A DNA stretch of 64,000 nt from an uncultured Dehalococcoidia bacterium. Lineage in GTDB: Bacteria > Chloroflexota > Dehalococcoidia > Dehalococcoidales > Fen-1064. The translations under genes and the position numbers were made by a program. The stretch covers positions 3,506 through 67,505 of the forward strand of contig CAIWXV010000102.1 of NCBI GenBank assembly GCA_903916765.1, written 5' to 3'. This document shows positions 4,027-40,883 of the stretch, one piece after another (position 1 is the first letter of the stretch; each line of letters opens with the position of its first letter). The notes beneath the pieces were generated by a model, which saw only the letters and a program-made list of their open reading frames with translations, had not been told where the DNA came from and made no database searches.

Positions 4027-5669
4027 TTCCACTTCCAGATTGCCCCTTGCGGAGTATCCTCAAGCACTATGCCCATTTCAAATAGCTTATTACGGATTTC
4101 ATCGGCAATTTTAAATTGTCTATTTTGACGTATTTCTTTCCTAATGTTTACCAAGGATTCAGTGCTTGCGGTTGATGATTTAGCATAATTTTCTAAATTC
4201 TCGACGATGTCACTGTAATTCTTGTTATTTAAATGAGCGATAATAGCGTTTAGCGAAGCTGTATTACTTATAGTTGCATTTTTAAATTGAATAATAGTGA
4301 CGGATTCATTATCTTTTAACACCGAGTCGAATGATTTTAACAAATCATTTCGTATAAAACTATTTGTTTGCAATTGTGGTAACACAGATTCAATTCTCTT
4401 CGCCATTTCTACGTACTTTTTTTCCGAAACTAGGTGTTTAGCTTCTTCAAGTAGCTCTTGCTCAGAAGAATTCCCATCTTCTTTGAGTGTTAACCCCAGC
4501 ACTCCTGCTAGTTCCTGAAGTGTCTGTCTTGCATCACTAGCATTAGCTCCCTTCTCGGCAGCTTTATTGATTTCTTTTGCCAGGTCGAAAAGTACGGCGA
4601 TTGCCTGTGGAGTATTAAAATCATCGTCCATTACTTCGGTGAATTTCTGACGGAAGGGTTGTGCATCGAGTTTTCCATTAGTTTTTCCTTGAGCAGTTCC
4701 ATTTTTTAGTGCCTGAGTCAATCTCTCCGCACCGCGCTCCGCCGCTTCGATTGCCTCTTCGGACAGAGTCAGCGGATTACGATAGTGCGAGCCCAGTATA
4801 AAGAGACGGAAGCCGTCAGCACTGTGTTTTTCGAATACCTGTTTAATGCTGATGAAAGTGCCCGATGACTTACTCATCTTTGCCTCGCCGAGTTGAAAAA
4901 GTCCATTATGCATCCAGAAGCGGGCAAAAGGTTTTTTACCGGTAAAACATTCGGATTGAGCGATTTCGTTTTCATGGTGTGGGAAAATCAAGTCCTGTCC
5001 GCCACCATGAATATCGATGGTTTCCCCGAGGTATTTCAATGACATCGCACTACACTCGATATGCCAGCCGGGTCTGCCTTTTCCCCAGGGACTATCCCAT
5101 GCAGGCTCACCGGGTTTTGCCGCTTTCCACAGGGCAAAGTCCATCGGGTCCTCTTTTTCTTCAACTGGTTCGATACGTGCGCCTGCCATCATCGAATCTA
5201 ATGTACGCTTCGATAGTTTGCCATAGTCGGGCATGCTACGAACACGGAAATAAACGCTCCCTTTGGCAGGGTAAGCATGTTCCTTCTTTACTAATCCTTG
5301 GATAACCTCGAGCATTTTCGGGATTTCCTCAGTGGCGTACGGCACGATGTCCGGTCGGAGTACATTCAAAACTACCATATCTTCGAAGTAGCGGTTGGTG
5401 TATTTCTCTGCCAGTTCGCGAGGAGTGATACCCAGTTTATTTGCGCGGTCGATGATTTTATCTTCGATGTCGGTGATATTCTGCACATATTTGACTTTGT
5501 AACCGCGGAAGATGAGGTAACGTCTTACCGTATCGAAAACGACAGCGTTCATGGCATGTCCCAAATGCGATTCATCGTAAGGTGTCACACCGCAGACATA
5601 TATCTTTACCTCATCACTGAAGGGCTTAAACTCTTCTTTTTGGGCGGAAAGGGTGTTGTAGATTTTCAT
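4020..5669 (-). CDS. cysS: Cysteine--tRNA ligase with an unusually long insertion before the C-terminal helix
   Basis: Class I signatures HLGHA and KMSKS. C-terminal ...FKIADEIRNKLFEMGIVLEDTPQG. It is 549 aa versus about 460-480 aa typical. Confidence 0.95.
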   Translation of the reverse strand: MKIYNTLSAQKEEFKPFSDEVKIYVCGVTPYDESHLGHAMNAVVFDTVRRYLIFRGYKVKYVQNITDIEDKIIDRANKLGITPRELAEKYTNRYFEDMVVLNVLRPDIVPYATEEIPKMLEVIQGLVKKEHAYPAKGSVYFRVRSMPDYGKLSKRTLDSMMAGARIEPVEEKEDPMDFALWKAAKPGEPAWDSPWGKGRPGWHIECSAMSLKYLGETIDIHGGGQDLIFPHHENEIAQSECFTGKKPFARFWMHNGLFQLGEAKMSKSSGTFISIKQVFEKHSADGFRLFILGSHYRNPLTLSEEAIEAAERGAERLTQALKNGTAQGKTNGKLDAQPFRQKFTEVMDDDFNTPQAIAVLFDLAKEINKAAEKGANASDARQTLQELAGVLGLTLKEDGNSSEQELLEEAKHLVSEKKYVEMAKRIESVLPQLQTNSFIRNDLLKSFDSVLKDNESVTIIQFKNATISNTASLNAIIAHLNNKNYSDIVENLENYAKSSTASTESLVNIRKEIRQNRQFKIADEIRNKLFEMGIVLEDTPQGAIWKWKK

Positions 5670-5681
5670 GCATTGGATCCT

Positions 5682-6158
5682 TTAATTCACCTTTTGAACT
5701 GAGGCGATGGCGAGTGTGGCGATTGCCTCTTCATTACCGAGAGCACCTACCTGATTCGCAGTACTCGCCTTGACACTCACCTGACCGATTGGGATTCCGA
5801 GGGTTTGATGTAATTGCTCCCGCATCCGGTCGATGTATTCCCTCAATTTAGGCTTTTCTGCAATAACCGTAGCGTCGATATTATTTATCTGCCAACCATT
5901 TGCGGTCAGTTTGTTTTTTATTTCACTCAATAGCTTCAAACTACTAATGTTCTTGTATTCCGGTTTGCCGGTTGGGAAGTGCATTCCGATATCTCCCATT
6001 GCCGTAGCGCCGAGTAGCGCATCGATGATGGCGTGGGTCAGGGCGTCGGCATCGCTCCAGCCGTCCAGCCCGCGCTCGAATGGTATCTCAACGCCGCCAA
6101 GCACTAATTTACGCCCCTTGGCAAGCGGGTGAATGTCGAACCCAATACCAAACTGCAT
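5682..6158 (-). CDS. ispF: 2-C-methyl-D-erythritol 2,4-cyclodiphosphate synthase
   Basis: 158 aa. FGIGFDIH, SDADALTHAIIDALLGA and GDIGMHFP motifs. Confidence 0.95.
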   Translation of the reverse strand: MQFGIGFDIHPLAKGRKLVLGGVEIPFERGLDGWSDADALTHAIIDALLGATAMGDIGMHFPTGKPEYKNISSLKLLSEIKNKLTANGWQINNIDATVIAEKPKLREYIDRMREQLHQTLGIPIGQVSVKASTANQVGALGNEEAIATLAIASVQKVN

Positions 6159-20859: not shown

Positions 20860-22287
20860 TTAAACCCCAGCCAATTCTCTACCGAACTGGAGTAGTCTCT
20901 GTACTCGTTCCGGACTATCGGTCTCTGTGTATATGCGTATGATTGGTTCAGTACCGGAAAATCTGATGAGTAACCACGAATTATCTGCCAGTATAAATTT
21001 GAAACCGTCGCGAGTGTCTATTTTTATCACTTTGACATTTCCGATACTTCTAGGGGAGTTTTCGCAAATGCGGGTAATGATGTTCTGCCTTTGTTCTGGA
21101 GGAAAATGCAGATCAATCCGGTGGTAATAGTGCTCTCCAACTTTACTGTAGAGGTAATCCAGTAATTGAGATGGCGTTTTACCTGTTTTCATCATGAAAT
21201 CAATGAAATAGAGACCGGCGGGGAATGCATCCCTCTCAGGCATATGACCTCGGAATCCGTAGCCGCCACTCTCCTCTCCTCCGATGAGAGCATTCTGCTT
21301 CAGTATTACAGGAGCGATATATTTGAATCCGACAGGAGTTTCAAAGACGGGCACTTTATAAATTTCGCCAAGACGGTCAATCATACTGGTGCTGCTAATG
21401 GCTCGGACAAGAGTCCCACGCTCGCCGCGGATTTCCAGGAGATACAAAGCTAGTATTGCAAATACTTGCAATTGGGTAAGGAACTGCCCTTTTTCATCTA
21501 TTATGCCGATACGGTCGGCATCGCCATCGGTTGCCAGCCCTATATTTGCCCTTTGTTCTACAACCAGTGATGAAAGTTTTTTCAGGTTGATTGCGATAGG
21601 TTCAGGATTAATTCCGGGGAAAGCAGGATTAAGTTCACCATTAATTTCCATTATTTGATTTGTACCGCCACCAAGCAGTGTTTTGAAGTAACCCGCCCCG
21701 ACTCCAAACATGGGGTCAACCGCTATCTTCAAACCGGCGTGACGCAGCTTATCGAGTTCAACCAGTTTACTGACACTATTCAGATAATCCGGGGTAAGGT
21801 CCAGGTATTCTGCCAGCTTTTTTTCGAGGGCTTGAGTCAGAGGTATGGTTTTTATCTTATTTGTACTGATTGCGTGGTCGATATGTTTTTCGATTTCGAG
21901 GGCGGTTTCCGAAGAGACACTTGTGCCGGTTTCCTCACGGAATTTAAACCCATTCCACTTTGCCGGATTATGACTGGCAGTGATGGCAATTCCCCCACCA
22001 GCTTTTTTGTTTATAACCCCAAAAGAAACGAGTGGTGTGGGAATAGCCTTAGGGGAAAGAGCAACTTTGATATCGTTGCCGGCGATGACTTCTGCGGCAG
22101 CAGCGGCGAAATCTTCAGAAGCAAACCGGCGGTCATAGCCAATATATACTCCACGATTGGCTAGTCCCTTTTGCTTGAGATAATCAGCCACACCTTGAGC
22201 ACAGAAACGCACATTGTCAAAGGTGAAGTCCTCTGCAATGACTCCCCGCCATCCATCGGTCCCGAATCTGATGGGATTATTTTCCAT
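20860..22287 (-). CDS. Phosphoglucomutase/phosphomannomutase family
   Basis: Phosphoserine loop TASHNPAKWNG, Mg loop ATDGDADR, sugar loop GGEESGG. Confidence 0.9.
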   Translation of the reverse strand: MENNPIRFGTDGWRGVIAEDFTFDNVRFCAQGVADYLKQKGLANRGVYIGYDRRFASEDFAAAAAEVIAGNDIKVALSPKAIPTPLVSFGVINKKAGGGIAITASHNPAKWNGFKFREETGTSVSSETALEIEKHIDHAISTNKIKTIPLTQALEKKLAEYLDLTPDYLNSVSKLVELDKLRHAGLKIAVDPMFGVGAGYFKTLLGGGTNQIMEINGELNPAFPGINPEPIAINLKKLSSLVVEQRANIGLATDGDADRIGIIDEKGQFLTQLQVFAILALYLLEIRGERGTLVRAISSTSMIDRLGEIYKVPVFETPVGFKYIAPVILKQNALIGGEESGGYGFRGHMPERDAFPAGLYFIDFMMKTGKTPSQLLDYLYSKVGEHYYHRIDLHFPPEQRQNIITRICENSPRSIGNVKVIKIDTRDGFKFILADNSWLLIRFSGTEPIIRIYTETDSPERVQRLLQFGRELAGV

Positions 22288-22388: not shown

Positions 22389-23600
22389 TTATTTCCCGAA
22401 AGCTTCTTTTCTCAGGATTAAGGCTTTATCTGTCTTTTCCCAGGGGAGATCGATGTCAGTTCTTCCGAAGTGGCCGTAAGCAGCAGTTTGCCGATAAATT
22501 GGTCGGCGCAGGTCAAGATATTGGATAATTGCTGCCGGTCTGAGGTCGAAGTGCTTATCAATCAATTTCAAAATGACTTCATTGCTCACTTTACCGGTAT
22601 CGAAAGTTTCTACGGAGACAGATAGCGGTTTTGCCTTACCGATGACATAAGATACTTGAATTTCCAATCTGTCTGCCACTCCGGCTGCTACCAGGTTCTT
22701 GGCGATGTAGCGTCCCATATAAGCGGCACTGCGGTCAACTTTAGTGGGGTCCTTACCTGAGAAAGAGCCTCCGCCGTGACGAGCAACACCGCCGTAGGTA
22801 TCTACCAGAATCTTACGACCGGTAAAGCCCGTATCGGAAGCGGGGCCGCCGATAACAAATCTGCCGGTACCATTGATATAGTATTTTGTATCCTTGTCAA
22901 TCAATTTGGCGGGGATAACTTGCTTGATTACTTTTTCGATGATATCTTTTTGAATCTGTTCATTAGTGACATCATCATCGTGTTGTGCCGCAATAACGAC
23001 GCTGGTAACACACTTCGGTTTGCCCTTGCAATATTCAACGGTTACCTGTGATTTACCGTCCGGTCTGAGGTAAGGGATAATTTTCTTCTTTCTCGCTTCG
23101 GCGAGTCTCAAACAGAGTTTTTGGGCTAAAGAAATCGTTAAAGGCATCAATTCGGGGGTTTCATTGCAGGCGAATCCAAACATCATACCCTGGTCGCCAG
23201 CGCCTTCCTTATCGAACTCATCGACTTTCTTCTTTTCTCGTGCTTCTATCGATTTGCTGACTCCTTGAGAAATATCTGGAGACTGTTCCTTGATGCCTGA
23301 AAGCACACCACAGGATTGATAGTCGAAGTTGTAGCGAGGGTCGGTATAACCGATACTTCTAACGACCTCGCGGACAACCTTTTGAATATCGACATAACAT
23401 TTTGTCGTGACTTCTCCTAGCACTACTACCAGTCCGGTAGTAACAGCAGTCTCGCAGGCGACTCTGCCGTAAGGGTCTTCTTTCATAATTGCATCCAATA
23501 TTGCATCGGATATCTGGTCACAGACCTTATCGGGATGGCCCTCTGTTACCGATTCCGAAGTAAGCAAATATTTAGATGATTCTGTAAAACTGTTTGCCAT
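22389..23600 (-). CDS. metK: S-adenosylmethionine synthetase
   Basis: [17 protein letters not shown] and [16 protein letters not shown] motifs. Confidence 0.97.
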
Positions 23601-23613
23601 TAATTTCTCCTTT

Positions 23614-24897
<1,284 letters not shown>

Positions 24898-25761
24898 TTA
24901 GTGCTGGAAATGCCGGGCAACTTCAGCCGGTATTGCTACTGTGCCCATGATAATGGGTTTCTGGTGACAATCGCTACCGCCGGTTGCAATGAGCTGGTAC
25001 CTGCGGGTAAATTCGAGGTAGTGTGCCACCGTTTTACTATCGTGTCGGGGGTGCCAGCATTCCACACCGTTGATATATTCTAGCATATTTTCGTAGATAA
25101 TTTGTGTCTGTTGTCCTAAGTCCTTTGTGATAGTTACCAGTGATGTTCCGCCGGGGTCATTTCCATGGGCGAGGACTAAGATTCCACCGGCATCATGGAT
25201 GAGTTTAGATGCCTCAGTGAGTGACAGCGGGTATTTGGGAACATCGCATTTTACCAGATATCGATCGAAGGCTTCCTGTATATCCCTGACGATACCTTTC
25301 TTGACCATATACGCGGCAATATGCGGCCTTCCGAAAGAACCGTCAACGCTATCCCTGATATTCTGCATATCCTGTACGGTGAACTGTGCAATGCTTTCCT
25401 TGATAAATTCAGTGTTAATCTTTTTCAGAATTTCACTTGCCCTTTTCTCTCGATATGCTCTCATCAGGCTGAGCTTTTCCCTCAGGTTTTTGTTGTCGAT
25501 ATCGAAGTTGTAGCCAAGAAAATCCAGTGAAATAGGTTTACCTGCATGCGGTTGAAAAGTAACATTCAATTCTACACCGGTAACGTATGAGATGCCGCAT
25601 GCTTTCGTCAATGAAATAGCTTGGCTTTGAGCCTCTAGAGAATCATGGTCAGTGATCGACAGAAAACCGATATTCCGTCGCTGGGCTTCTTTGATGACCT
25701 CTTCTACGGGCAGAGCGCCATCCGAGCCTGTGCTGGTGTGAATGTGCAGATCGATCTTCAT
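24898..25761 (-). CDS. PHP-domain metal-dependent phosphoesterase
   Basis: DLHIHTSTGSDG and ITDHD motifs. Its ATG overlaps the upstream TAA (TAATG at 25759-25763). Confidence 0.8.
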   Translation of the reverse strand: MKIDLHIHTSTGSDGALPVEEVIKEAQRRNIGFLSITDHDSLEAQSQAISLTKACGISYVTGVELNVTFQPHAGKPISLDFLGYNFDIDNKNLREKLSLMRAYREKRASEILKKINTEFIKESIAQFTVQDMQNIRDSVDGSFGRPHIAAYMVKKGIVRDIQEAFDRYLVKCDVPKYPLSLTEASKLIHDAGGILVLAHGNDPGGTSLVTITKDLGQQTQIIYENMLEYINGVECWHPRHDSKTVAHYLEFTRRYQLIATGGSDCHQKPIIMGTVAIPAEVARHFQH

Positions 25762-26366
25762 TATGCTCTCTTATCGATAGCCTTTAGATACAAACCCTCT
25801 GCTTCACCGGTGGTAGTATCGACGGTGAGATGCATGATTTTCAGATTCGGGAATAACTTCTTGATATCATTGAGATCGACTTTCTCGAATTTGGTTTTGT
25901 TATTGAGGTATGCTTGTTCGGTGAGCGCGTTGGACTCGTATTTCTCTTTGGTACGTTTCAAAATGCGCTGGATGGATACTTCTTGAGGGCAGTCGGTTTG
26001 TACGATTATCAAGGTCTTGTTGTTTTTGTTAGCAATTTCGGCAGCACATTTCCTGAGTTCCTGTGTGATGAAAGTGGCGTCGAGAATCACGCTACCGATC
26101 TTTTGTAGAGTTTCATCGGCGCGACGGAATACTTCGTCATAGACAGAAAGGCGGTTATTCATATTTCCAGCGACTTTTTCGTCGAAAATATCTTTTCCTT
26201 TCAGAACTTCTAGGCGGACAATGTCCGACCTGATCATCGGAGTACCTTTGATTTTGACGACTTCCTCACTGGTTTCGGTTTTCCAGGTAGCAGGCAAGCC
26301 GGTAGTAATCATCAGAAAATTATCACCCAATTCTTCCTTCACAAACTCCAAAAACGGTTTTCCCAT
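25761..26366 (-). CDS. P-loop kinase-like (AAA_33-type) protein with a degenerate Walker A
   Basis: 201 aa from ATG 26366 (GGAG 10 nt upstream). The Walker A position reads GLPATWKT, with Trp in place of the second Gly. Confidence 0.65.
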   Translation of the reverse strand: MGKPFLEFVKEELGDNFLMITTGLPATWKTETSEEVVKIKGTPMIRSDIVRLEVLKGKDIFDEKVAGNMNNRLSVYDEVFRRADETLQKIGSVILDATFITQELRKCAAEIANKNNKTLIIVQTDCPQEVSIQRILKRTKEKYESNALTEQAYLNNKTKFEKVDLNDIKKLFPNLKIMHLTVDTTTGEAEGLYLKAIDKRA

Positions 26367-26379
26367 AGTCAATCTCCGT

Positions 26380-27384
26380 CTATTTTGTGTATGATTCCGC
26401 CAGTGCAAAATACTGTTTTGCGTCTTTCAATGCCTTCTCTTTATCCTCGGTTGATATCAGTGAATCCTCGAGCTTGAAACCATAGACCTTGCCGCGTACA
26501 TAGGCATAGTAACACTTGTAGAAATTAACTAACTTCGACACTTCTTTGTCACTGCTGCTGGTAACATAAGCGGTAACGAATTGGCGTGATAGTTCAGAAT
26601 GTCCCCACCGGTCCAAATCCATCGCCAGGAAAGCAACGTCTGCCGCCACATCAAAATAACGGAAGCGTTCGTTGAATTCGATACAGTCATAAATGCAGAT
26701 ACCATCGGTAAAACAGATGTGTTGAGCATGGAGGTCGCCATGACAATCCTTGATTTTGCCGTCGGCGACACGTTTGCGGAGTAGTGGTGCACTCTTTTCT
26801 AGAAAGTCCCGTGTGTATTTACTGATATGCTGGTACTGCGGCAGGGATATTGTTCTGCCGACATAACTTTCTGTCTGGTTGAAATTCTCCTCGGTATTGA
26901 AGGTGATTGTCTCGATAGTCCCGAACTTACCGATATCCGGATTATTTTCGGCTTTGGCATGAAATTCGGCGACTTTTTCTGCTACCCGCGCAATCATTTC
27001 GGGAGTAACCTGGTTTTTTGCCAGTAAAACATCCATCATACGGTCGGCGGGGAGTTTGCGCATTTTGACGGCATACTCGATGACTTTGCCTTTCCCGCCA
27101 AGAACAATTCTACCGCATTCTAAGTTGATTGGCACTACACCTAGATAAGTATCTTCGCACAGACGGCGGTTCAGGCTTACTTCCTGTTCACAGAAGTGCT
27201 TACGGTTTGCCAGAGTGGTGTAATCGAGAAAACCCTGATTGACCGCCTTTTTGATTTTGTAAACATAACTATCGGTTAAGAAGATAATGGATATCTGAGT
27301 CTGTGTCGTCTCCACCTGATTGGTCGATTCCGGATAGACTTGTGGGTCGGAGAGCGCTTTCACGATATCTGCCAGTTGTGTCAT
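26380..27384 (-). CDS. Aminoglycoside-phosphotransferase/choline-kinase-fold kinase, substrate unknown
   Basis: 334 aa. Catalytic loop CHGDLHAQHI and metal-binding region IYDCIEFNERF. RBS GGAAGGAG. Confidence 0.7.
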   Translation of the reverse strand: MTQLADIVKALSDPQVYPESTNQVETTQTQISIIFLTDSYVYKIKKAVNQGFLDYTTLANRKHFCEQEVSLNRRLCEDTYLGVVPINLECGRIVLGGKGKVIEYAVKMRKLPADRMMDVLLAKNQVTPEMIARVAEKVAEFHAKAENNPDIGKFGTIETITFNTEENFNQTESYVGRTISLPQYQHISKYTRDFLEKSAPLLRKRVADGKIKDCHGDLHAQHICFTDGICIYDCIEFNERFRYFDVAADVAFLAMDLDRWGHSELSRQFVTAYVTSSSDKEVSKLVNFYKCYYAYVRGKVYGFKLEDSLISTEDKEKALKDAKQYFALAESYTK

Positions 27385-27444
27385 CTATCTCCTTCCGGTG
27401 AGCAAAATCATACTACCCCGATATTTTTCTGATAATACAGAACT

Positions 27445-27466
27445 GATGCTGACGGATGTCAGCATC
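27445..27466 (-). promoter_or_regulatory. Perfect 9-bp hairpin in the leader of the kinase-PHP-ahcY-metK transcript
   Basis: GATGCTGAC-GGAT-GTCAGCATC. There is no T-run on either strand. Confidence 0.35.
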
Positions 27467-27502: not shown

Positions 27503-27601
27503 CTATTTTTTGGATTGGGTTTTTTCGGCTTTTCGCTTGTCTTCAGCTTTTTTCTGTTTATGACGGTGCTCGCGAAGCGCCATTTTCTTACCTTTGTTCA
27601 T
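27503..27601 (-). CDS. Unannotated 32-aa highly basic miniprotein (MNKGKKMALREHRHKQKKAEDKRKAEKTQSKK)
   Basis: ATG 27601 lies 20 nt after the stop of the Cys-rich gene. 99 nt in frame to TAG 27503-27505. It falls below the ORF-track cutoff. Confidence 0.35.
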   Translation of the reverse strand: MNKGKKMALREHRHKQKKAEDKRKAEKTQSKK

Positions 27602-27621
27602 ACCTATTAATTTACCCTAAA

Positions 27622-27834
27622 TCAATTCTTTTTGCCACTTTTATCTTGAAAAACCTTAACGAACCGGGCAAAACTGCGGTTATAGGTTTTCTCTACTTCA
27701 GGCGGAAAGGCACAGGCAGGCAACTCTTCCATCTCAAAATGGTAAGTTAAGCATTCACAGCATTTACCTTTTCTTCCACATGGTTCATAGGTGCAGGAGC
27801 ATTTGGCATTGTTGGCTTCGAAATTACATTCCAT
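27622..27834 (-). CDS. Small Cys-rich protein (8 Cys in the first 41 aa), possibly a DUF6485-type metal binder
   Basis: 70 aa. Pattern C-x8-CxC-x4-C-x5-CCxC-x12-C. The family name is from memory, not searched. Confidence 0.6.
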   Translation of the reverse strand: MECNFEANNAKCSCTYEPCGRKGKCCECLTYHFEMEELPACAFPPEVEKTYNRSFARFVKVFQDKSGKKN

Positions 27835-27875
27835 ATAGTTACACCAGACAACCTGATTCCTGTTTAGTATTTAGC

Positions 27876-28904
27876 TTAGAGGTACTTCTTTCGAATCGTG
27901 GCAGACAGGTCTGCCAGCAATTGTAAAGCTCGTTCTGCCGCAGGCTCACTGCCGATTGGCCCCAGTCCGCAGGCAGGCAGTAATAATCCTTGCTCAATCA
28001 GTTGATTGAATGGAATACCTTTGCGGGTGAAAGGTGACATCGCCGATTCAAGGCGGTCTTTCAGGCTGGCAGTCGTTTCTTTATTGACCGATTCGGCATC
28101 GGTAGGAATAATGCCCCAGCCGATACAGCCCCCTCTGCTCAAAAACTTTTTAACTTCTGTCGGATAGAGGGCAAGCGAATCGGCGTATTTGTAGGCGTCA
28201 AAATGGATAATATTTGTACTAGTCTGGAGCAAAATTGACCAATCAGTGTTGCCACAACAGTGAACGCCCTTGATTCCTTTGATACCGGTGAAAGTTTCTT
28301 CCAGCATACTAACTACTTGCTCCCGAGACAACTGCATTGCAATCGACCCGAAAGCTGTCATATACGGCTCGTCGACAAAGATGATGGTATTTTTATTCAG
28401 TTTGCTCAATGCCTGTTCTTGCCAGCTTGCTTTGAGGCGTAAAAATTTAGGTACCACATCACCAAGCGTTTCATCGTAAATAATGCCCTTGCCTGTTTCG
28501 TCAGTAATCGTTAAACCCCAGCTGACAGGACCGGTAACATGTCCTTTAACGGCGCGCGGGTTCAATTTCTCCATCGCCAGAAAAGTATAAAATCCTGCTG
28601 CGTATTCGGGACTGAGGGTGTATCTGGAGAAATCATTTGCCATATAGTCGGTATAGAATTGCTCCAGTTGCTTGGTTAAGTCCTGATTGCGGTCGACGTA
28701 AATCTTATTGTCTTTAATGACAACACCGGGGAAGCCCTCGCTGTACTGGGCATACATGTTTTCCAGAAACGACCGTTTGGGTAATTGCGGCCATGCGGGA
28801 ATGTCACGCAAATAATGAGTTACTTGCGCGCAGGCATTCGCCGCATCTTTGTGCGGCAGGCTGCCGATAATTGTCGGTAAGCACCCGAATCTAGTATTTA
28901 ACAC
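27876..28904 (-). CDS. Short MetE-like (cobalamin-independent methionine synthase catalytic-domain-only) protein
   Basis: 342 aa, about the size of the MetE C-terminal barrel. It contains HCCGNTDW and a C-terminal LPACGLG Cys. GTG start follows GAGGAG. Confidence 0.65.
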   Translation of the reverse strand: MLNTRFGCLPTIIGSLPHKDAANACAQVTHYLRDIPAWPQLPKRSFLENMYAQYSEGFPGVVIKDNKIYVDRNQDLTKQLEQFYTDYMANDFSRYTLSPEYAAGFYTFLAMEKLNPRAVKGHVTGPVSWGLTITDETGKGIIYDETLGDVVPKFLRLKASWQEQALSKLNKNTIIFVDEPYMTAFGSIAMQLSREQVVSMLEETFTGIKGIKGVHCCGNTDWSILLQTSTNIIHFDAYKYADSLALYPTEVKKFLSRGGCIGWGIIPTDAESVNKETTASLKDRLESAMSPFTRKGIPFNQLIEQGLLLPACGLGPIGSEPAAERALQLLADLSATIRKKYL

Positions 28905-28923: not shown

Positions 28924-29796
28924 CTATTGTATATATTTTCCTATCAATAATTCCAGTTTCTTTTTCTGTACGGCGGGAATTTTCTCCGGTGCTGTCACAA
29001 TAGCCCCACTCAGCGCATTAGCACAACGGCACTCACGCTTTTTAGGAATCTTTTTGATTGCCAGTTTAATAATGAGCCGTGCCGTACCCATGTTAGCCCG
29101 CAGAATTTTAAGGACTGTCTCCACCGTGACTGCTTCTACCGGCTCCCACCAGCTATCGTAATCTGTGACGCAGGCAATAACGGCGTAGCAGATTTCCGCT
29201 TCACGTGCCAGCTTCGCTTCCGGTAGCGCCGTCATACCGATGACATCCGCTTCCCAACTACGGTACAGCTTCGATTCCGCCCTTGTGGAGAAAGCGGGAC
29301 CTTCCATACAAACATAAGTACCTTTGTGATAAACGATAGCGTCTGCTTCTTTTGCCGATTCGTAGAGTATTTTGCTCAATTCGTTGCAGAAGGGCTCGGC
29401 GAAAGAGATGTGAGCGACGATACCATCGGTGAAAAAGGTACTGATGCGATTGCGTGTGCGGTCGATGAGTTGGTCGGGGATTAAAAGATTCCCGGGTGCA
29501 TATTCCTGCTTAAAACTACCGCAACTGCACACGGCGATGATTTGCTCCACGCCGAGTGATTTCAGGGCGTAGATATTGGCGAGGGCAGGTAGCTCTGTGG
29601 GGGAGATGAAATGCCCGCGGCCGTGCCTCGGCAGAAAGGCAATGCCGATGCCATCCAATTTGCCGATGGTGATGGCATCACTCGGTTTGCCGAAGGGCGT
29701 GTCTATTTCAACCTGCGTAACATCCGTCATCCCCTCGATATTTTCCAATCCCGTCCCCCCGATGACGGCGATCTTAACCTGCGGTTTGGTGGGCAT
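28924..29796 (-). CDS. mtnP: S-methyl-5'-thioadenosine phosphorylase
   Basis: AVIGGTG and FLPRHGRGH motifs, with PNP/MTAP family layout. Confidence 0.9.
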   Translation of the reverse strand: MPTKPQVKIAVIGGTGLENIEGMTDVTQVEIDTPFGKPSDAITIGKLDGIGIAFLPRHGRGHFISPTELPALANIYALKSLGVEQIIAVCSCGSFKQEYAPGNLLIPDQLIDRTRNRISTFFTDGIVAHISFAEPFCNELSKILYESAKEADAIVYHKGTYVCMEGPAFSTRAESKLYRSWEADVIGMTALPEAKLAREAEICYAVIACVTDYDSWWEPVEAVTVETVLKILRANMGTARLIIKLAIKKIPKKRECRCANALSGAIVTAPEKIPAVQKKKLELLIGKYIQ

Positions 29797-29869: not shown

Positions 29870-32615
<2,746 letters not shown>

Positions 32616-40807: not shown

Positions 40808-40883
40808 TGGTGAGCCGTCTGGGATTCGAACCCAGGACCACCTGATTAAAAGTCAGATGCTCTACCAACTGAGCTAACGGCCC
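40808..40883 (-). tRNA. tRNA-Lys (anticodon UUU), CCA encoded
   Basis: Cloverleaf GGGCCGT/ACGGCTC acceptor, anticodon loop CTTTTAA, T-loop TTCGAAT. 76 nt. Confidence 0.95.

Follow-up and report, generated by a model that had tools for sequence, protein, structure and literature searches.

The closest described relatives of the system reported here are the core methionine synthases (core-MetE, or MesB) of Dehalococcoides mccartyi. The core-metE gene was found through inspection of the metK/ahcY neighbourhood, "in the same operon", and the purified enzyme is active alone in vitro on methylcobalamin (kcat ~60 per second); the Zn ligands of the CBDB1 enzyme are His215, Cys217, Asp236 and Cys312, the His of an HxxG motif was proposed as the lower cobalamin ligand, and the physiological methyl donor is thought to be a corrinoid protein (Deobald 2020, PMC7005905). 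Homocysteine is bound by Ser15 and Asp177 (numbering of D. mccartyi 195). MesB was described by an HCDC Zn-ligand pattern (His-x-Cys ... Asp ... Cys) and delimited operationally by a cut-off of at least 173 bits to DET0516 (Price et al. 2021, PMC7857596). Further traits of MesB are the use of methylcobalamin, not methyl-THF, for homocysteine methylation and a genome that has the corrinoid iron-sulfur protein CoFeSP (acsC/acsD) and lacks metF. Another core synthase, MesD, requires oxygen and MesX (DUF1852). Here we analyze a stretch of 64,000 nucleotides (the window) from an uncultured Dehalococcoidia bacterium (GCA_903916765.1, contig CAIWXV010000102.1, positions 3,506 to 67,505), in which the gene for a 342-aa MesB is directly followed by two small genes, one for a Cys-rich miniprotein of the family DUF6485 and one, a small open reading frame (sORF), for a very basic peptide of 32 aa.

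There is nothing new in the enzyme and in its S-adenosylmethionine (SAM) cycle cluster as such (Deobald 2020, PMC7005905; Price 2021, PMC7857596). Of interest is a conserved microprotein family, represented by the sORF, with its own motif, coding evidence and three conserved gene contexts, which was missed or called "hypothetical" in annotation. The best explanation of the whole locus, to which we give moderate confidence, is a MesB in a SAM-cycle cluster together with two independently functioning small proteins that share its operon and are not its dedicated subunits.

The small ORF downstream of mesB

Judged by how its codons vary among relatives, the sORF is a real gene, conserved as a protein in dozens of genomes. 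Lys and Arg make up 14 of its 32 residues (an earlier note on this DNA, made from the letters alone, had counted 13), its pI is 10.6, and among the window's 257 ORFs of 25-60 aa with an ATG start it alone reaches a Lys plus Arg fraction of at least 0.4. When genomes, one for each species, were scanned for DUF6485, at least 596 matches came up, of which the best 80 loci were fetched. At 33 of these 80 loci, all from Dehalococcoidia or other Chloroflexota, an ORF starting with MNK follows DUF6485 on the same strand, mostly at a distance of -4 to +39 nt; several of the pairs overlap as ATGA. The consensus of the peptides is MNKxKRVAxLKHRxKxKKLKEKRKA, the core family motif MNKxKRVAxxKHRxKxKK, and the N-terminal module MNKxKRVAxxKHRxKxKKLxEKRKA. 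Residues 1-25 are free of gaps across the family except for a one-residue deletion in one locus (L030).

Averaged over pairs of sequences, nucleotide differences are 0.27, 0.31 and 0.57 at the first, second and third codon positions, respectively, and single-base codon differences are synonymous in 3848 cases and non-synonymous in 1290 (75% synonymous, compared with 20% expected). This synonymous excess, together with the variation at third positions, shows purifying selection on the sORF protein, and the earlier suggestion that amino-acid conservation in relatives should tell whether the ORF is coding was thus answered in its favour. The same note had called the ORF hidden and unannotated. 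The gene is indeed real; it is not hidden everywhere, however, as the exact 32-aa sequence has already been gene-called in metagenomes as "hypothetical protein". A profile search returned 393 matches in protein databases, all of them "hypothetical" and with no relevant Pfam domain. Furthermore, no matching family model was found in Pfam (E up to 10, 23 members) or NCBIfam (97 members), and a literature search gave nothing relevant on small proteins in Dehalococcoides or on bS22 in Chloroflexota.

A canonical Shine-Dalgarno sequence at normal distance is absent before the sORF of the window; in other contexts of the family, the Shine-Dalgarno sequence is properly spaced. The 20-nt spacer that separates the DUF6485 stop codon from the sORF start has the consensus TGA TTTAGGnTATATTATTAnnn ATG in relatives (TTTAGGGTAAATTAATAGGT in the window), with high per-column information across 19 loci of equal spacing (the window and 18 related ones), and a -10-like TATATT (TAAATT in the window) ends 7 nt before the ATG of the sORF. 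The spacer may serve in translational coupling, or it may be an internal promoter whose mRNA would be leaderless.

Gene contexts of the sORF family

Loci of the sORF were also retrieved independently of DUF6485, with a degenerate DNA pattern of the motif that found 80 metagenome loci. Thirty-nine of them (Group A) belong to Met/SAM clusters, with DUF6485 ~233 nt upstream in 14 and absent in 25. In about nine Group A loci mesB is directly followed by the sORF, with no DUF6485, and the same arrangement is found in L087 (mtnA-mtnP-mesB-sORF(127 aa)-NTPase_1). Group B (16/80) has genes for a MiaB-like protein, a TPR protein, the sORF and a PucR-type regulator; its one named example is a Ktedonobacteraceae genome. 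In Group C (12/80), the ORF has 27 aa and is flanked on either side by a tRNA(CAU) gene, with tilS and ftsH downstream; both tRNA genes were seen in nine of these loci. The upstream tRNA is initiator-type in 5/5 loci inspected (C1xA72 mismatch and GGG/CCC anticodon stem), and the downstream one may be tRNA-Ile2. The contexts of the remaining 13 loci are mostly varied. Where at least 1.6 kb of upstream sequence was available, mesB was present in 19 of 42 sORF loci and DUF6485 in 8 of 42. Every combination of mesB, DUF6485 and sORF is thus observed across lineages, and a dedicated partnership is therefore unsupported.

The Group C lineage is of high GC content, and its tRNA genes and sORF are on the same strand, with tilS and ftsH directly after them (L094, L104, L110, L111, L136, L145, L153, L161, L163; in L110, for example, tRNA 802-876, sORF 923-1003 and tRNA 1019-1094). 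In many relatives, a P-loop NTPase gene (NTPase_1/THEP1-like, PF03266, identified in L087 at 5384-5896) starts in or just after the 3' end of the sORF; it replaces the kinase as the downstream neighbour of the sORF in L007, L011, L014, L015, L017, L018, L023, L025, L026, L030, L035, L040, L048 and L058.

The family includes long variants as well. Of the ORFs found with the pattern, 13/80 have 92-204 aa; most of these append Lys/Ala/Pro-rich, histone-H1-like repeats, some with PKKRGRPKK AT-hook-like motifs. Long variants keep the 25-aa N-terminal module and occur in clusters without DUF6485 (L095, L098, L101, L109, L120, L123, L134, L137, L142, L155, L165, L166). One database protein (P0459), encoded on a single 689-nt contig, fuses the sORF module to an HU domain (PF00216).

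Identity of the 342-aa protein

Motifs, homologue names and fold agree that the 342-aa protein is a core methionine synthase (MesB/core-MetE) like that of Dehalococcoides. The earlier note had read it in this way, and we concur, even though sequence search alone was silent: neither an E-value limit relaxed to 10 nor a profile of 49 sequences brought a match in Pfam, NCBIfam or PDB. Homologues number more than 6000, and the closest ones, from metagenome-assembled genomes of Dehalococcoidales/Dehalococcoidia, are named methionine synthase by their sources. The protein has the length of a single barrel (~340 aa) and lacks the N-terminal folate-binding domain of MetE. The HCDC pattern is present as H215/C217/D236/C312, and S15 and D178 are found as well, the latter in a DEP motif; in 49 homologues H215, C217, D236, C312 and D178 are invariant and S15 is nearly so. 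The AlphaFold2 model (mean predicted local distance difference test score, pLDDT, 91.7) is one (beta/alpha) barrel. Its top Foldseek matches are MetE structures, namely 1XDJ from T. maritima (E 5.6e-9), followed by 4L5Z and 3L7R (C. albicans, S. mutans) with E-values to 3e-8; next come the Methanosarcina corrinoid methyltransferase 4AY7 (MtaA-like), the Listeria core-type protein 1YPX and UROD. The model aligns to part of the MetE chains of 700-750 aa, with template modelling scores of 0.55-0.65 if normalised to the query and ~0.3 if normalised to the target.

The window protein also has His122 of the HxxG motif (residues 122-125, window 28539-28550, minus strand). Among the 49 homologues the majority residue in column 122 is Gln, and the proposed His122 cobalamin ligand is therefore not family-wide.

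The DUF6485 miniprotein and its linkage to mesB

The 70-aa protein matches Pfam DUF6485 (PF20095) over residues 7-65 with 31.9 bits (gathering cutoff 24; E 1.9e-7). Its Cys residues at positions 3, 12, 14, 19, 25, 26, 28 and 41 form the pattern C-x8-CxC-x4-C-x5-CCxC-x12-C exactly as the earlier note gave it. C3, C19, C25, C28, H32 and C41 are invariant in 69 homologues, and C12, C14 and C26 are at least 90% conserved. The constellation C12, C14, C19, C25, C26, C28, H32 and C41 is also kept in distant DUF6485 members; C3 is conserved in close relatives. DUF6485 is a stand-alone Cys7-His miniprotein that putatively binds metal, most likely with a fold built on a cluster or on two metal sites. 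The AlphaFold2 model (pLDDT 87.5) has four short helices, and a Foldseek search with it found no structural match in PDB and BFVD.

DUF6485 comprises 461 clusters at 50% identity, and the best 150 of them span 41-132 aa. The family is found mostly in uncultured genomes, and the lineages that carry it are largely anaerobic bacteria and archaea. Among the same best 150 of 461 clusters there is no convincing domain fusion, including fusions to MetE-like or corrinoid domains. Apparent fusions to a thioredoxin fragment and to a radical-SAM C-terminus are single sequences each and look like gene-calling artefacts. In some DUF6485 proteins a single chain has the complete Cys/His module twice, as a tandem duplication (P0191, 128 aa; P0283, 114 aa). 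In the literature library searched, neither DUF6485 nor the neighbouring locus tags of D. mccartyi came up in any paper.

The linkage between the Cys-rich gene and core-metE that the earlier note proposed to profile was confirmed within Dehalococcoidia, but was not seen beyond them in the loci fetched. In the best 80 loci of the DUF6485 scan, mesB lies upstream on the same strand in 31 of the 39 species loci labelled Dehalococcoid*. Of the 35 loci with mesB, 28 have it within 250 nt of DUF6485, 21 of these with a gap of -2 to 40 nt, and seven have insertions of 0.7-2.7 kb. In contrast, mesB is near DUF6485 in none of the 33 loci of other lineages with sufficient upstream sequence (Anaerolineae, WOR-3, Aminicenantes, Moorella, Syntrophales, Thermotogaceae, Hadesarchaea, Thermoplasmata, Bathyarchaeota and others). 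The neighbours of DUF6485 in these lineages are heterogeneous: gcvPA/gcvPB (5 WOR-3-type loci), radical SAM proteins (3), aconitase, MnmA, DAHP synthase, flavin reductase and peptidases. The mesB-DUF6485 linkage is thus real, but it is a lineage-specific gene order, which is compatible with a functional tie without being a proof of one. The association with gcvPA/gcvPB is a second lineage-specific tie of DUF6485 to a one-carbon enzyme.

In the loci with glycine decarboxylase genes (L034, L044, L060, L065 and L078; WOR-3 and unclassified bacteria), DUF6485 lies between gcvPA and gcvPB or directly before them, with gaps of 0-31 nt. Five Dehalococcoidia loci possess mesB and DUF6485 and lack the sORF. 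In one of these, from a Dehalococcoidaceae genome (L033), three genes stand between mesB and ahcY; the interval from cbdbA481 to cbdbA477 in D. mccartyi CBDB1 has an equal count.

Possible functions of the small proteins

If the locus is understood as a MesB with two independently functioning small proteins, MesB would activate homocysteine on its Zn site (H215/C217/D236/C312), and its methyl donor would not be methyl-folate but a methyl-corrinoid, probably a corrinoid protein. The two small genes are probably co-transcribed with mesB. The sORF family, with very basic proteins of ~27-40 aa in several unrelated contexts, would bind nucleic acid through its conserved N-terminal basic module; this is the most likely activity in view of the pI of 10.6, the H1-like tails, the HU fusion and the tRNA-gene context. 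As for the target, we tentatively put the ribosome or the translation apparatus first, at somewhat less than an even chance; nucleoid DNA is a close alternative with about one chance in three, and the rest falls to something else.

The first specific candidate is a divergent homologue of the ribosomal proteins bS22/mS38 (AURKAIP1/COX24 family), that is, a bS22-like microprotein of the small subunit encoded between tRNA(CAU) genes in one lineage and in a methionine synthase operon in Dehalococcoidia. We regard this as unlikely, with a chance of perhaps one in five. The size class is alike (27-40 aa compared with 33 aa), and both share a common core, RKR[MV]-x3-KHR[KR], with identical spacing (RKRMSKKKHRK and RKRMAALKHRR; the bS22 sequence was verified). 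Of all NCBIfam models, ribo_bS22 comes closest to a member (E 0.057), the best match of a profile search in PDB is the 26-aa mitoribosomal protein mS161 (E 0.32; bS22 was not listed), and the gene of Group C has a tRNA(CAU) gene on each side, initiator-type on the upstream side. Moreover, the bS22-mS38 link itself reaches only E 0.1-1 by phmmer, so a weak signal is to be expected. However, ribo_bS22 is touched by only 1/97 members (1/24, then 0/73 at E up to 1), far below its cutoff, the cut-offs of the family models for bS22/mS38 (NF047430, PF08213) are not reached, and the probability given by hhalign is 5.9%. Against the hidden Markov model (HMM) of the sORF family, bS22 of M. smegmatis scores 14.3 bits, a value that 20% of shuffled sequences reach; a second bS22 variant (8crx) scores 21.9 bits, which is reached by 0.3% of shuffles. 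The H1-like and AT-hook-like tails and the HU fusion favour DNA instead. The resemblance to bS22 is not established, and we put it forward as a hypothesis suggested by size, charge and the tRNA-operon context.

A second candidate, which we consider doubtful to the same degree, is a nucleoid-associated DNA-binding peptide, i.e., a minimal histone-H1-like or HU-tail protein. It would account for the long variants described above, most of which carry Lys/Ala/Pro repeats on the 25-aa module and some of which carry PKKRGRPKK, for the variant fused to HU, and for the occurrence in several unrelated contexts, as is to be expected of a general architectural protein. However, the sORF of the window is a short form that lacks such a tail, the HU fusion comes from a single short contig, and the tRNA-operon context suits translation better. 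Tails rich in Lys, Ala and Pro also occur on ribosomal and RNA-binding proteins, which counts against this candidate.

The earlier note had raised the possibility of a metal or redox partnership between the Cys-rich protein and core MetE. In its fuller form, this idea makes DUF6485, possibly with the sORF, a dedicated accessory of MesB in Dehalococcoidia: a small metal or iron-sulfur protein, whose part would be either to dock MesB to the corrinoid protein that donates the methyl group or to deliver electrons for the reactivation of oxidised corrinoid. The same-strand adjacency in 31/39 Dehalococcoidia species loci, with gaps mostly of 40 nt or less, is in its favour, as are the presumed corrinoid-protein donor, the precedent of MesD with its need for the adjacent MesX, and the proximity of DUF6485 to gcvPA/gcvPB, another one-carbon enzyme, in WOR-3. 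Nevertheless, 33 non-Dehalococcoidia DUF6485 loci have no mesB nearby, and their heterogeneous neighbours offer no other recurring partner. Many mesB clusters exist without DUF6485, on its own the purified enzyme uses methylcobalamin at the rate given above (PMC7005905), and DUF6485 is not fused to MetE-like or corrinoid domains in the clusters surveyed. The proposed partnership was thus not borne out, and we consider such an accessory improbable, at roughly one chance in eight.

That the 32-aa ORF is non-functional, either a chance intergenic ORF or a leader peptide or upstream ORF of the kinase operon, is very improbable and already largely refuted: it is short, of low complexity and preceded by no canonical Shine-Dalgarno sequence at normal distance in the window, with the kinase gene 118 nt downstream, but its residues 1-25 are gap-free (bar L030) with a strong synonymous excess, the peptide is conserved before differing downstream genes (PucR, tilS, NTPase_1), and in the window a hairpin and a promoter-like site stand between the sORF and the kinase.

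A MesB with two independently functioning small proteins thus remains our preferred explanation, and several points weigh against it. The sORF is tied to mesB even in the absence of DUF6485. The mesB-DUF6485 adjacency persists to ~51% MesB identity with the short gaps (-2 to 40 nt) found in 21/35 loci; this exceeds what is expected of neutral gene order and leaves room for a functional tie in Dehalococcoidia. That DUF6485 binds metal, and that the sORF product binds nucleic acid, are predictions. The HU fusion comes from one 689-nt contig only, basic low-complexity tails are not DNA-specific, and the resemblance of the sORF to bS22 is statistically non-significant.

Organisation of the locus

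The locus is a conserved methionine-salvage/SAM-cycle cluster of Dehalococcoidia, with the entire gene set (mtnP, mesB, the 8-Cys gene, the 32-aa ORF, the kinases, PHP, ahcY and metK) on the minus strand (Table 1). The earlier note had placed the three ORFs correctly, including the gaps of 41 nt between mesB and the 8-Cys gene and of 20 nt between the latter and the sORF. Its "supercluster" of methionine and SAM-cycle genes was likewise confirmed by the assignments of mtnP, ahcY and metK; it is published knowledge, since core-metE was discovered from the metK/ahcY neighbourhood (PMC7005905).

Table 1. Features of the mtnP-metK region, with positions in the window.
Feature	Position	Strand	Evidence or remark
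mtnP, S-methyl-5'-thioadenosine phosphorylase	28924-29796	-	TIGR01694 MTAP E 2e-93, 312 bits vs cutoff 275; PF01048
mesB/core-metE, 342 aa	27876-28904	-	GTG start, GAGGAG Shine-Dalgarno before it
DUF6485 (PF20095) miniprotein, 70 aa, 8 Cys + 1 His	27622-27834	-	Pfam
Spacer from DUF6485 stop to sORF ATG, 20 nt	27602-27621	-	nucleotide-level conservation in relatives
sORF, 32 aa, MNKGKKMALREHRHKQKKAEDKRKAEKTQSKK	27503-27601	-	unnamed small basic protein family
Terminator-like hairpin, 9-bp stem GATGCTGAC/GTCAGCATC, weak T tail	27445-27466	-	terminator scan
Promoter-like site TTATCA-17-TATGAT	27435..27407	-	precedes APH-like kinase gene
APH-like kinase	26380-27384	-	PF01636
AAA_33 kinase	25761-26408	-	PF13671
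PHP phosphoesterase	24898-25761	-	PF02811
ahcY	23614-24879	-	TIGR00936, 639 bits
metK	22389-23600	-	TIGR01034, 573 bits

The first gene of the unit is mtnP, 19 nt upstream of mesB, and it stands upstream of mesB in relatives as well. The hairpin lies 37 nt past the sORF stop codon and is a possible end of the mtnP-mesB-DUF6485-sORF transcription unit; it is not conserved among relatives. The kinase gene starts 118 nt downstream of the sORF, and the order kinase-PHP-ahcY-metK is repeated in Dehalococcoidia loci. No riboswitch or other Rfam family was found in the cluster.

The trio of APH-like kinase, AAA_33 kinase and PHP is conserved between the sORF and ahcY-metK across Dehalococcoidia (L008, L010, L014, L023, L040, L047 and others). 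The PHP phosphoesterase is closest to 3',5'-nucleoside bisphosphate phosphatase, below the cutoff of that family. MtnK was considered for the APH-like kinase and rejected, as NCBIfam gave no match. The cluster is flanked upstream by pth (peptidyl-tRNA hydrolase; 29870-30517, minus strand) and downstream by a gene of the phosphoglucosamine/phosphoglucomutase family (20860-22287, minus strand). Elsewhere in the window are three tRNA genes, at 40811, 41881 and 61852.

Comparison with known systems

Should the sORF product prove to be ribosomal, it would join the lineage-specific ribosomal microproteins known from bacteria. It resembles bS22/mS38 (NF047430, PF08213) in its length of ~30 aa, its very basic character and the motif RKR[MV]xxxKHR[KR] with the same spacing. 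In contrast to bS22/mS38, the sORF family starts with an invariant MNK and has some long-tailed members; it fails the family models, and the similarity may be no more than a compositional match. With the H1-like, AT-hook and HU-tail regions of nucleoid proteins, the long members of the family share the Lys/Ala/Pro repeats, PKKRGRPKK and, in one case, a fusion to HU, whereas the sORF of the window has the 25-aa N-terminal module only, which is not a known DNA-binding motif.

The window's Cys-rich protein carries the Cys/His pattern of PF20095; its linkage to mesB is specific for Dehalococcoidia and is not a trait of the family. DUF6485 does not partner MesB across the family, and its weight as a candidate for the methyl supply of this enzyme is reduced. 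The arrangement resembles MesD-MesX in that a core synthase has an uncharacterised gene beside it. In contrast to that pair, DUF6485 and mesB are apart in most sampled lineages, and MesB is active alone in vitro.

The nearest known counterpart is the MesB of D. mccartyi (cbdbA481 / DET0516), which has 343 aa compared with 342 aa here. In contrast to it, the enzyme of the window comes from an uncultured relative and is known here from its sequence and model. Both have a single MetE-type barrel with no folate-binding half, the same Zn-ligand numbers, Ser15 and Asp178 for homocysteine binding and the H122-x-x-G motif, and both share the location in an ahcY/metK cluster and the origin from Dehalococcoidia.

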